Assembly: GCF_032062105.1 (NCBI RefSeq)
Contig: NW_026930103.1
Coordinates: 620,001 to 684,000 of the forward strand
From: Saccostrea cucullata
Lineage: Eukaryota
Direction of reading: 5' to 3'
Length of the DNA stretch: 64,000 nucleotides
In this document: positions 1,026-32,185 of the stretch, one piece after another
Layout: each line of letters begins with the position of its first letter
Position numbering within the stretch: the first letter of the stretch is position 1
Notes under the pieces: model-generated
Told to the model about the DNA's origin: nothing
The model's input: the letters and a program-made list of their open reading frames with translations, nothing else
Databases searched by the model: none
Translations under genes and position numbers: made by a program

Positions 1026-4000
1026 TTATTTGTTGTCATTATTGTCATGGAAACAAGTGTTATTATCAACATCAACATAAATGACCTCTGCATTCGTGTT
1101 AGAGTTTTTTGTGCTGTTTTGCCGAGTGAAACCAAGAGAACCGAGACTGAAGGAGGCAGGAAACATAGACGTTGATATTTTCTTTTTCTTCTTGACAGGA
1201 GTAAGGCTGGAAGCTACAGAAAAAGATAAAAAAAATATTACAATACCAGCATACACAGAAGATTCATATTTCATAAGATTTCTATATGTACTTAAAGTTG
1301 ATGCAAAAGTTGAATTGCTCATCTAAGGGAAATTTGACTAAAACAAATTTTGCTCATTTTGTGACTAGCATTTGTTCAATTCTACCTCATGAATGCTCAT
1401 TACATGAAATAAAGAAAAGGCTATAAACCTTCTTAATTTTCATCATTTGTCTCTTTAATTCCAAAAGAAAGTGATGCAAAAAATCACCGTTTTATTTTTA
1501 TGACTTAATTATTCTTTATTCAAAATCTTGTAGTCTCCCTTAATGCGTATACATGTACATGACATGGAATAAGATACATTGCAAGAACTGTAGTCTTACA
1601 TCAGATTGTAAATAAATAATAATGAGCGGAATAACTGAAATACTGAATAATTAACCTGAAATGAACCGGCCATTTAATGACAAGGGAATACATATAACGT
1701 GTTTGTATTACATTCTGCAGTATTAATCCTGTCTTTATATCTAATTATTTACCTATTATTTCATCTAGTTCTCCTTCTGGAATACCTGCAGAGACAGCTC
1801 TACTGCGTAATGAGTCAATGCAGGCCTATAAAAAAACAAAATATTTTCTCAAGACATTGGTGATCATTGTATATGTACACGAACCTAGCATAACCTTAGA
1901 AGCTTGACTACCCGTATTGTTGGCACCGACTCATCCAAGTTTAACGTAAAATTTAGATCCAACATGTATAAGTAACTGGTATGAATTTCTATTAAGAATT
2001 ATAAAATATTCCTACAAAATAAATCACATTTGTATACAAGGGTTCATAGACGTGTAAAATCTTGCTCTTGTGTGAATGCGTTTTATGGAAGTGTTTTCTT
2101 TTTTCTTATATCTTTAAAGTGAGGGTGAATAAAGATTTTTTTTTTCATTTTTCAAGAAGAATCTCACTTCATCGCGATAATAAAATTAAAATAAAATACC
2201 CGTACCTGAAGTGCCTTATTGTCTGCTTTAGACGTTTTAAGATCACTGGCTACTTGTTTTTTCTGCTTATATAAAAGCTTCATCCTGAAGTGCTCGTGAT
2301 CAATAACTGCTACCACCAAACCTAAGTAAGGATAAAGAATAGGGTTAATATGATTGATTGCCTTCAGAAATTGCATCATTTATTTATTGTTCATTCAGGG
2401 CACTATCACCTCCAGTCGTTTTTGTTTTATAAAAGAATCTTCATCTGTCTGCCATCAAATGTATACAAGTAAATGGTCAGAAAAGATTCGTACATATTTC
2501 TCAGTTACAGTTATCCTTCCTTTACAGTTCGTAATAACTAAATTAACCCATTTTATAAAGATTCGCATTTGAATCTAAGCTCAATTGAGTACTTTGTATT
2601 ATTTCGATAGAATAAAGCGACTATGGTTTGGCAGTTTTTTGTCATGGCTTTACTTTTAGATAAATTGAGAAATGCATAATCATACAATGAATATTTAAAA
2701 TGATCAATAACTGTTCAATAGTTCAATAGTTGCAAAGATCAATAATATATGTAATGATCAATAACTGTTCAATAATTCAATAGATGCAAAGATCAATAAT
2801 ATATGTAATGATCAATAACTGTTCAATAGTTCAATAGTTGCAAAGATCAATAATATATGTAATGATCAAAAACTGTTCAGTATTTCTATAGATCAATGAT
2901 AAGCAATGAGTTCACAAACAATGGTCTACTGTATTATCCACATGTAATACATTAATTTATACTCGATTCTCATTATATCGCGGGTTTCATTGTATCGCGG
3001 TATATTCCAAAAAATCAGATACATAGCTCATATTCTTTTTGTTGAAAAAACTTTCTCTCTGTTGTCTAAATGTAATTCTTTGTGATGATTAAAATGCATG
3101 GAAGATGCCTCGAATTTTTTTTTTTTGTTGAAATAATAAGTAATTTTACAGATTTCCGTTTTCGTTTTTATTATATTTAGACCACTCAATTTTTAGTCTA
3201 GTAAAATCCATAATAAAGTTCATGTTTTGAAAGATTTTAGTTTGTACTATTGTTTATTTTTTGTGTAGAATTACATCGTAAATTTAAAAATAAGAATTGA
3301 AGTCTATGTCAACCATAAGTTTCCATGTTTTTCCATACCGCGATACTAGGAGACTCTCCAATTCAGTAGGTAAATAAGACTTCCTGTTTAAAAATAAACT
3401 ACAAATTAAACGATGCAAGATTGGAACATAATTTGACATTAAAAGCTTACGCCATAGTTTGGTTTATGAATATCATTTGAAGAAAGTTAAAGCAAAAAAA
3501 AAAATGAATTACACTTTTTATGCAAAAGTTTTAAGTACCGCGATATAATGAGACACCAGTATACATTAGTTATGCTTTTGAAAATATATTTATGCAGATC
3601 GTGACTGTTTAACAGAAACCAAATGAAAAATTCAAATTCTAAATTTATATTAATATGATCTATATATTTCTAATTTTAAAAAAAACTTAAAACATTAATG
3701 TTTTATTATCATTATTTCCTTACTGTGCTTTATTTGTATTATTTTGAGAAATTAAACTTTCAGATGTCACTGGGAAATTGGAAAAAAAATTCGCAGTTTG
3801 AAAACAGAAGCTACACACGAGGACCAAGATAATTTTTTTAATGAAACCATGCAGGGTAACGTTTCAGGTTGTACTCGTACATGCTTGGTCATTCTGTCGC
3901 TTAACTATTCGTCAAATGGTTGTCAGGAGTGGTCGTTTGAATTACTTCCTTAATATGTATTCATAAAAATATTTACATACATATAGGGGTTGTAAATATC

Positions 4001-30700: not shown

Positions 30701-32185
30701 ATAGTGTGCCAAGTCAACTTCGATAGGATGATGATCAAAATCATGGTTCTCCTCTATGTCACTTCCGGTTTTGTTGACATGATTCGGTGATTCGGCTGCT
30801 CTTTTTCTTCTGTCAGAATTCGTTGAAGATGCAAAAGTAGTGGTTGTTATATCGTTTGTCAACAATGTGGTCAACATTGGGGTTGATGTTGTCATGGTAA
30901 CCGTTGTTTCCGTCGCCCTCCTGGGTCTGTATGCGCTGTTGAAATCTACTTGAGCCAATAAGATTTTCCTATGAAGATTGTCCAGTTCAGCATAGTCGTA
31001 CTTGTAATTCTCCAGAACTTCGGGATACTGAGCTTTCATGTTGGTGACGAATTTCAGAGCTTCAGTTTCGCCGTGATCAACAACACCTAATATGTATATA
31101 ACAGTCAGAAACTTTATAAATCTAATTTGTTGAAGTAATTTGAAATAGTCCACAGTGCCTTAAATTTGATAACATGAAATACATTTAGTTATTACATTGT
31201 AACGAAAGCAAATGATTATCGGTTTTACTTTTCATGTCTTACAGTGTATATACATGTGAAGTGCATATACAAATGTTTTTTTTTAATATTCAACCAACGA
31301 AAGATAACTGTGATGGATGTTAAAGAGACCTGAATGTGGACCGGAGAAAGTGATTTACTTGTACAAAGAACAAAACACAGTACACGTGCCTTTGTCATTT
31401 GATTACCTTTGAGGTAGTATATATCCAGTATAAGTTCCCCCATCACCAGAATACAGTCCACTATATTGAGGAGTACTATAGCCAGGAGAACCCATTTTGT
31501 GTGCATAAACTTTTCTCCTTTGTATCGAATTCTTAAAATAATAAAAATAATATTTTTAGTATTATGTTTATTTCATTTGACCAGGCCTGATATCAATAAA
31601 TTAAACAGGTATTACTCTAGATGAGACAGTTTTTTTTTTTATTGTTTCGTTAAATACAGAAATATAGGAATAGTATTTTTTACTTTTTATTTCATTATTT
31701 GTTATGTTTTGAAAATGTATATAATGTCCTCATTCATATCAAAGGAAGAATATTAATGCAGTTTGTGTCGAAACTAAATAAGACATGGACTTTTTTTTTT
31801 ATTTCAAAGTTTCTTCTGTCAGTTTTATGCCTTTTATAATCTTACTTTCCAATTTTTGATTTTGGTGGTTTTCTGTTTTCTCGCTCTATTTCGTGTTCCA
31901 AACTCTTCTCAGTTTCATTCAGGACGGCATGTGCTCTCGCTAAGGATAGTGACCCTTCGGCGAGTGCCTGGAAATATGGCACACAAAAAACAAAAACGTC
32001 AAATGAAACACACACCTATATTGAATTTTTGTATTTACTACCACCCGGTATATTCATAAATTACAATATAACAGGACCTCCCCTTTTTTCAAAAATAAAA
32101 ACAGCTAAATAGTTAAATGTTGAAATAATTTTTTTACGTGCAGTCCCTTCGTATTCTTTTTCTTTCTATCACCAAGAAGCCCCAT
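27715..32185 (-). CDS. Voltage-gated proton channel, Hv3-like, paralogue C; 9 coding exons
   Basis: Exons 32185-32138, 31967-31846, 31531-31407, 31086-30656, 30383-30330, 30188-30050, 28463-28348, 28083-28011, 27896-27715. S1 'LNIVDCILVMGELILD', S2 'HYCSIAILAVLAVENILK', S3 'VFDGFIVVASFIVDLVF', S4 'FLVPWRVVRVVNS'. Confidence 0.9.
29205..29484 (-). mobile_element. SINE-like / 5'-truncated non-LTR insertion with 15-bp TSD (Hv-C intron)
   Basis: (GATT)n tail at the left end; exact direct repeat ggaacatcattaatg at 29190-29204 and 29485-29499. Confidence 0.8.

Follow-up and report, generated by a model that had tools for sequence, protein, structure and literature searches.

What kind of protein is encoded by the three related genes that stand in tandem on one contig of the oyster Saccostrea cucullata, and how did there come to be three of them? 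The window analysed here is the whole stretch of 64,000 nucleotides (assembly GCF_032062105.1, contig NW_026930103.1, positions 620,001 to 684,000), and positions are counted from its first base. The three genes, A, B and C, lie on the minus strand and resemble Hv3, a type of voltage-gated proton channel. The limits of the array are exact: position 32185 is the start of the gene A ATG, and 1026 is the final base of the gene C stop codon. We consider it probable that A, B and C are intact tandem Hv3-type paralogues that arose through two duplications in the oyster lineage, and that each likely encodes a leaky, weakly voltage-dependent, dimeric proton-selective channel. Published papers are cited below by PubMed Central number.

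In a six-frame scan, S4-like PWRxxR motifs of the minus strand came up at 30077, 18634 and 4941, and the models of the three genes were assembled from splice sites:

27715..32185, minus strand: gene A, Hv3-type channel of 429 amino acids in nine coding exons (splice-site model; RefSeq match)
Coding exons of gene A, minus strand: 32185-32138, 31967-31846, 31531-31407, 31086-30656, 30383-30330, 30188-30050, 28463-28348, 28083-28011, 27896-27715
17733..20571, minus strand: gene B, Hv3-type channel of 426 amino acids in eight coding exons, without intron 1 (splice-site model; orthologue match)
Coding exons of gene B, minus strand: 20571-20396, 20199-20075, 19767-19349, 19203-19150, 18745-18607, 18360-18245, 18077-18005, 17911-17733
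1026..7139, minus strand: gene C, Hv3-type channel of 442 amino acids in nine coding exons (splice-site model; RefSeq match)
Coding exons of gene C, minus strand: 7139-7083, 6805-6684, 6489-6365, 6029-5575, 5423-5370, 5052-4914, 2321-2206, 1825-1753, 1213-1026

All three frames are open, with no internal stops, and the splice sites are canonical, with GT-AG at 23 of 23 introns. Seven introns are common to A, B and C in both position and phase (2,1,0,0,1,0,1), while intron 1 (phase 0) is found in A and C only, the coding sequence of gene B being continuous across that site. By BLASTP the proteins are 48-53% identical to each other, with the identity concentrated in the helices: pairwise, 57-71 of 87 positions agree in S2-S4, as against 6-8 of 48-62 in a variable loop and 9-11 of 42-47 in the tail. 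An earlier note on this DNA had described three intact same-strand paralogues with strongly diverged loops and tails, and this description holds; the conserved exon phases that it also reported are real for the seven common introns, but not for intron 1, which is missing from B. The models of A and C agree letter for letter with RefSeq proteins of the same species (XP_062621214/5, LOC134282845, and XP_062621213, LOC134282843, respectively). The gene B protein is 85.7% identical to Saccostrea echinata LOC133195350, and its alignments with this protein and with Ostrea edulis LOC125648421 are gap-free at 7 of 7 junctions. No same-species protein for gene B was retrieved in protein searches that scored the best 8000 candidates and, since C and A bear consecutive RefSeq accessions, gene B (17733-20571) may be absent from the RefSeq annotation. 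There is no fourth copy in the rest of the window, in the 40 kb to its left or in the 30 kb to its right. A haplotype or assembly artefact was rejected, as the copies are only about 50% identical and each has its own S. echinata orthologue.

Judged from their sequences, A, B and C are Hv3-type proton channels, since all three keep the S1 Asp and an xPWRxxR S4. The best sequence matches of A in the PDB are Hv1 structures (3wkv, E 3e-10; 5oqk, E 1.5e-9), and the next is the voltage-sensing phosphatase VSP at E 0.015. In human numbering, taken from the PDB Hv1 alignment of A and from the human sequence printed in the supplement of PMC10377628, the residues D112, E119, D123, H140, E153, K157, D174, D185, W207, R208, R211 and N214 are kept in all three proteins. 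In S4, Val replaces the first Arg (R205) and Pro precedes the Trp; in S1, the selectivity-filter Asp that aligns with human D112 is D82 in A, D84 in B and D85 in C. These elements lie as follows:

30060..30077 (A), 18634-18617 (B) and 4941-4924 (C), minus strand: S4 motif PWRxxR (motif scan, alignment)
31453..31467 (A), 20135-20121 (B) and 6425-6411 (C), minus strand: S1 segment N79-I-V-D82-C of A, the same in B and C (alignment)

The proteins thus have the sequence and fold features by which PMC10911540 defines an Hv channel, namely an S4 Trp with at least two flanking Arg, here within PWRxxR, an Asp or Glu as selectivity filter in S1, and four transmembrane helices in a voltage-sensor fold, here seen as hydropathy peaks and AlphaFold helices. 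They also have the xPWRxxR motif, the very large S1-S2 loop (118-130 residues) and the larger intracellular domains by which PMC10377628 sets apart the Hv3 type, with total lengths of 426-442 residues, where the same paper gives 200-250 for conventional Hv channels. They depart from the conventional Hv1/Hv2/Hv4 pattern (an RxWRxxR/K S4 and a short loop) in having Val for the first Arg and a loop of more than 100 residues, and from the TMEM266 pattern (first S4 Arg kept, RLWRIKR in TMEM266-like records) in having PWRxxR and the S1 Asp. Human TMEM266 is not known to have the S1 Asp. In the ESM Atlas, Hv clusters (0.92, 0.91) rank above TMEM266 (0.86). The Hv3 type proposed in the earlier note is therefore borne out by the S1 Asp, the PWRxxR motif and the long S1-S2 loop.

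Comparison with known channels places the trio more closely. Like AcHv3 and other mollusc Hv3 proteins (PMC10911540, PMC10377628), A, B and C combine the S1 Asp and the xPWRxxR S4 with a very long S1-S2 loop, a His at the start of S2 and a coiled coil after S4. They are much shorter than AcHv3 (426-442 as against 980 residues, with a loop of about 120 as against 299), have an extra predicted N-terminal helix and form three oyster-specific tandem copies; they need not be direct orthologues of AcHv3. With conventional Hv1, Hv2 and Hv4 channels (human HVCN1, AcHv1-2, CgHv4) they share the four-helix voltage-sensor fold, D112, W207, R208, R211 and the acidic residues of S2 and S3. Unlike these, they have lost the first S4 Arg, have Pro before the Trp, Asn for V109 and Leu for F150, and carry a long loop with a predicted cut site. 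The genome's conventional Hv gene lies elsewhere.

The substitutions at V109 and F150 may bear on the activity of the channel. In human Hv1, V109, F150, V177 and V178 form a hydrophobic gasket, and the mutants V109D, F150D and V109A/F150A leak (PMC6754559, Table 1). In our alignment of 50 rows, the V109 position is Asn in 43 rows, A (as N79), B and C among them, and the F150 position is Leu in 49 (L239 in A). AcHv3 is proton-selective, leaky and weakly gated, and PMC10911540 leaves open whether its leak comes from the S4 change or from a breached gasket; by eye, AcHv3 in the supplement of PMC10377628 has Leu at the F150 position, as do A, B and C, the polar residue Thr at the V109 position and a loop that contains RXXR-S sites. 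The family-wide N109/L150 pair is a candidate for the origin of the leak known from Hv3, and it makes this open question testable by residue swap. The N/L combination is not among the human Hv1 mutants found in the available portions of PMC6754559, nor did we find the gasket change described in the literature searched. By analogy with AcHv3, each gene would yield a dimeric, weakly gated proton leak channel of the plasma membrane or of secretory compartments; dimerisation would occur through the predicted C-terminal coiled coil, and the human mutants suggest that the leak would be helped by the more polar gasket, with Asn at V109 and Leu at F150.

Alternatively, A, B and C could be non-conducting voltage or pH sensors, similar to TMEM266, in which the large outer loop or a fragment released from it is the functional part. 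The loss of the first S4 Arg would fit this, as would the replacement of the charge-transfer Phe by Leu (49 of 50 rows) and the long, glycosylated-looking S1-S2 loop, which has one N-glycan sequon in A, two in B and six in C; moreover, AcHv3, the sole Hv3 with recorded currents, is a different paralogue. However, the S1 Asp, W207, R208 and R211 are all kept, AcHv3 conducts protons with the same S4, and the ESM Atlas puts Hv over TMEM266. We therefore regard non-conducting sensors as unlikely.

How old are the three copies? The orthologues of A, B and C all lie on one 53 Mb contig of S. echinata, those of A and B share a contig of O. edulis, where their locus numbers differ by four, and A-type proteins also occur in Crassostrea virginica and Magallana. 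Neither B nor C was retrieved from Crassostrea/Magallana, nor C from Ostrea, among the best 8000 candidates scored, which may reflect the scope of the search as much as loss. In the main tree (30 rows, 283 columns), support is 100/100 for each of A, B and C and 98.3/100 for A+B+C, a clade that also received 99 in the Shimodaira-Hasegawa-like approximate likelihood ratio test (SH-aLRT) on a quick tree of 31 rows. The oyster trio, the scallop orthologue and the mussel expansion form separate clades in the 30-row tree. Two groupings that would place a duplication before the split of oysters, scallops and mussels, A with scallop (p 0.003) and B with mussel (p 0.008), were rejected by approximately unbiased (AU) tests on 20 of the 30 rows. 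From the tree supports and these rejections we infer two duplications, which would fall between the split of oysters from scallops and mussels and the later divergence of Ostrea, Saccostrea and the Crassostrea group. Gene conversion and a recent duplication were likewise rejected, because synonymous sites are at or near saturation (proportion of synonymous differences, pS, 0.65-1.15) even in the S3-S4 exon, where A and C are 91% identical and the nonsynonymous proportion (pN) is 0.05, and because the introns of A, B and C share scattered repeats only. The old local expansion that had been proposed for this locus is thus upheld, by the oyster clade, the saturated synonymous sites, the lack of further intron similarity and the orthologues in other oysters.

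By implication the expansion had also been treated as surprising, but it is not new. Hv3-type families of up to eight members per bivalve, and eleven Hv genes in a scallop, were already reported in a 2023 review (PMC10377628, section 2.1.4), which also names calcification as one speculated reason. A search with the S3-S4 exon found eight xPW-type loci in the S. cucullata genome, three here and five on other contigs (C21406, C23227, C11042, C7050 and C17333), which fits the published bivalve maximum. The supplement of the review lists accessions for nine C. gigas and eleven Mizuhopecten sequences; four of the latter are nearly consecutive (XM_021497391/397/398/401) and, by accession offset, surround LOC110450126, the scallop orthologue of the oyster trio. 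From this numbering, the four look like a cluster at the orthologous locus, so that tandem Hv3 clusters appear to be implicit in the published lists; the word 'tandem' does not occur in the available main text of PMC10377628, and none of six orthologue locus identifiers was found in the literature searched. Scallop and mussel Hv3 clusters resemble the oyster trio in that their paralogues share a chromosome (in Argopecten with the near-consecutive accessions XP_069133432/434), but they stem from separate duplications and form their own clades. The array itself is therefore fairly ordinary: it brings three more members into a known family with an established expansion, together with a triplication dated to the oyster lineage, and by itself this is a modest addition. 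What lifts the array above routine is the predicted cut site and the gasket changes, through which the loop and the leak, neither of them yet explained, become open to simple experiments. The channels may be linked to shell formation. In the repairing mantle of three bivalves a voltage-gated hydrogen channel, given without a name, is upregulated (PMC8382897), and dynamic expression was seen in mussel larvae (PMC6662379); neither report names the paralogue.

The three copies have not changed equally, and by sequence B is the most changed. When compared with 3 of 5 outgroups, its S2-S4 shows more private changes than that of A (chi-square 5.6-11.8), its stem branch is the longest, and the 22 residues that precede S2, with four His each in A and in C, contain none in B. 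The private S2-S4 changes of B are themselves conserved between Ostrea and Saccostrea. There is thus some sign that the copies diverge in function, as the earlier note suggested by sub-functionalisation, in the faster S2-S4 of B, the loss of its His patch and a different type of predicted cut site. Full-length A-type proteins of 428-431 residues occur on Logan contigs of 1.4-2.5 kb, with nothing comparable for B and C; as these contigs are shorter than the 4.5 kb gene, the A orthologues are probably spliced and expressed. This, the long B stem and the failure to retrieve a same-species B protein could mean that B, C or both are redundant or decaying and that A alone is the working gene. Against this, the open frames are 86-88% identical to their S. 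echinata orthologues (82-84 of 87 positions in S2-S4), and B has persisted since Ostrea and Saccostrea split, making decay very improbable. Most likely, the copies would have been kept by dividing up tissues, compartments or processing.

A further way in which the copies could differ is as subunits, A, B and C acting mainly as heterodimers in which B or C modifies the gating of A. Hv1 dimerises through its coiled-coil region (PMC10911540), and here the junction of S4 with the coiled coil is nearly invariant and the coiled-coil region is identical at 34-38 of 61 positions among the three; the conserved private changes of B would also suit a modifier subunit. Yet A-type proteins occur in Crassostrea/Magallana with no B or C partner among the scored candidates, and a tandem position by itself implies no binding. 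Heterodimers as the main form therefore seem a lesser possibility.

Several results count against the reading of the trio as old, Hv3-type leak channels. AlphaFold models of A and C consist of an N-terminal helix, an S1 that continues as a helical stalk, a low-confidence loop and S2-S4, with S4 running on into a long helix that we read as a coiled coil. The top structural match of the A model is the Ci-VSP voltage sensor (Z 13.9, root-mean-square deviation 3.8, 135 aligned), but unrelated designed four-helix bundles reach Z 12.7 in the same comparison and neither model has a Foldseek match at E<=0.001; the structural comparison is thus consistent with a voltage-sensor fold, but no more than that. 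Pfam Ion_trans falls under its cut-off for A (22.3, cut-off 25) and is absent for C and for the B orthologues; single exons match no channel family in Pfam. The trees, in which A, B and C nest among xPW-type mollusc proteins, contain no AcHv3 (980 residues), conventional Hv or TMEM266 rows; of the Aplysia proteins found, LOC101857936 is the nearest. That A, B and C would be proton-selective and weakly gated, with a standing leak, is drawn by analogy from AcHv3, and no closed-state leak results in human Hv1 from V109T, V109A or F150A as single changes (PMC6754559, Table 1). Finally, the grouping of B with C is weak (77/84 in the 30-row tree), and the faster rate of B is not significant against 2 of 5 outgroups.

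What might the huge S1-S2 loop be for? The furin consensus is R-X-[K/R]-R. When loop motifs were counted in the 50-row alignment, dropping one row with a truncated loop (n=49), RX[K/R]R was present in 24 of 49 rows, compared with 0.8 expected from composition shuffles; 9 of 49 have only a dibasic [K/R]R-S/A. Ala or Ser directly follows the motif in 20 of 27 matches, and in 23 of the 24 rows the motif lies 14-42 residues before the S2 His. Its carriers include oysters, scallops, mussels, clams, Solemya, octopods, abalones and limpets, and this despite a variable loop that agrees with that of A at only 5-19 of 31-63 aligned positions (about 11-30%). Elsewhere in the S. cucullata genome, 4 of the 5 other Hv3 loci have the full motif, and inspection by eye also finds it in 3 of 4 xPW-type Aplysia proteins from the supplement of PMC10377628, AcHv3 among them. 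In the array, the sites are:

30800..30811, minus strand: gene A loop RRKR (residues 191-194), then Ala, predicted furin-type site (motif match)
30928-30917, minus strand: gene A second loop motif, RPRR (motif match)
19496..19504, minus strand: gene B loop dibasic KR-S (residues 189-191), without Arg at the P4 position (motif match)
5782..5790, minus strand: gene C loop dibasic KR-S (residues 182-184), without P4 Arg (motif match)

By analogy with Hv1 and from its one to six N-glycan sequons, the S1-S2 loop most likely faces the outside or the lumen, and the RRKR-A stretch of A is probably disordered, with a predicted local distance difference test score (pLDDT) below 50 in AlphaFold. The motif suggests that the loop is probably cut in A-type proteins. 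A proprotein convertase of the secretory pathway would cut the outer or luminal loop, leaving S1 and the stalk as one piece and a short His-rich peptide with S2-S4 as the other; S1 would stay held to S2-S4 in the membrane, and the His-rich peptide at the new N-terminus could act as a pH or metal sensor. A would be a furin substrate, and B and C at most substrates of dibasic-cutting convertases. Taken together, these steps lead us to propose, tentatively, that mollusc Hv3 proteins are protease-processed split channels, in which the convertase cut exposes the His-rich peptide of S2 that sets leak, pH or metal sensitivity, furin-type A and dibasic B and C are matured in different cells, and the breached N109/L150 gasket provides a standing leak. 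With nearly the same core, but with differences in predicted cut site and His patch, A, B and C lend themselves naturally to comparison. A furin site in an exposed outer loop has a precedent in ENaC alpha and gamma, which are processed by furin there; their fold is unrelated, and cleavage of A is predicted only.

Several observations make this proposal less secure. No loop site of any kind is present in 16 of 49 rows, the trait changes 9 times on the tree, and the cytosolic N-terminus is also enriched in basic clusters (15 of 47, as against 4.8 from shuffles), though the excess is smaller than in the loop; the C-terminus, as a control, has the motif in 6 of 50 (2.2 from shuffles), and at neither terminus is Ala or Ser preferred after the site. 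The excess in the loop is strong, yet we attach no formal p-value to it, since counting began only after the motif had been spotted by reading and since the rows share ancestry. The loop motifs, RXKR as well as KR-S, are quite possibly mere basic patches, serving charge, trafficking or glycan binding and never cut, an account to which we would give somewhat less than an even chance. The rows without any site favour it, as do B and C, which have no P4 Arg, and the roughly three-fold excess of cytosolic basic clusters. It sits less well with the roughly thirty-fold excess in the loop, with the Ala or Ser after the site and with a spacing from S2 that stays fixed across so variable a loop in bivalves, cephalopods and gastropods; a conserved convertase site still suggests processing. 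The word 'furin' does not occur in the available portions of the two Hv3 papers (PMC10911540, PMC10377628), where 'cleav' appears solely with reference to human sperm Hv1. The literature searched yielded no report of a cut loop in an Hv channel; the CgHv4 paper (FEBS J 2023, 290:3436) and an announced family paper, which may already describe the array or the site, did not belong to it. Among the matches listed for 'voltage-gated proton channel' with 'furin' (best 12 of 15) no title was on the subject.

Two other Hv loci of the genome deserve mention. The Hv3 paralogue at C23227:1142620-1142757 reads LPWGVIR, with Gly (codon GGA, one base from Arg) for the second S4 Arg, a residue described as fully conserved in PMC10377628; the Gly may be genuine, allelic or an error of the assembly. 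The conventional Hv gene (RLWRVTR) is found on two contigs that are 89-98% identical (C6794:1-12400 and C13551:290800-301400), probably a retained haplotype.

Around the array, short tandem repeats lie between A and B (22557-22848, 24567-24751), and no Rfam match was found in the window. Nested near-identical duplications (92-97%) lie at positions 37408-48058 (37408-38846/38845-40300, 40295-41611/44089-45430 and 41483-44095/45415-48058) and include two intact-looking DDE_3/PAX-like transposase open reading frames at 41730-42839 and 45639-46784. A carboxylesterase gene follows at 50617-52188 on the minus strand (523-residue open frame, PF00135, E 2e-112), with a likely further exon at 50268-50606. 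A fragmented long terminal repeat (LTR) retrotransposon with gag, protease, RNase H and integrase matches occupies 52725-59746, flanked by direct repeats of 324 bp (52725-53048 and 59429-59746) that agree to 95%; transposon-like open reading frames at 59933-63686, with a weak zf-AD match (E 0.003), continue into the right flank. Beyond the window, a reprolysin-type metalloprotease lies 17-25 kb away on the left, and a RecQ-like helicase fragment, a GNAT/FR47 acyltransferase and a frizzled-domain (sFRP-like) gene lie on the right; these neighbours are useful as synteny markers.

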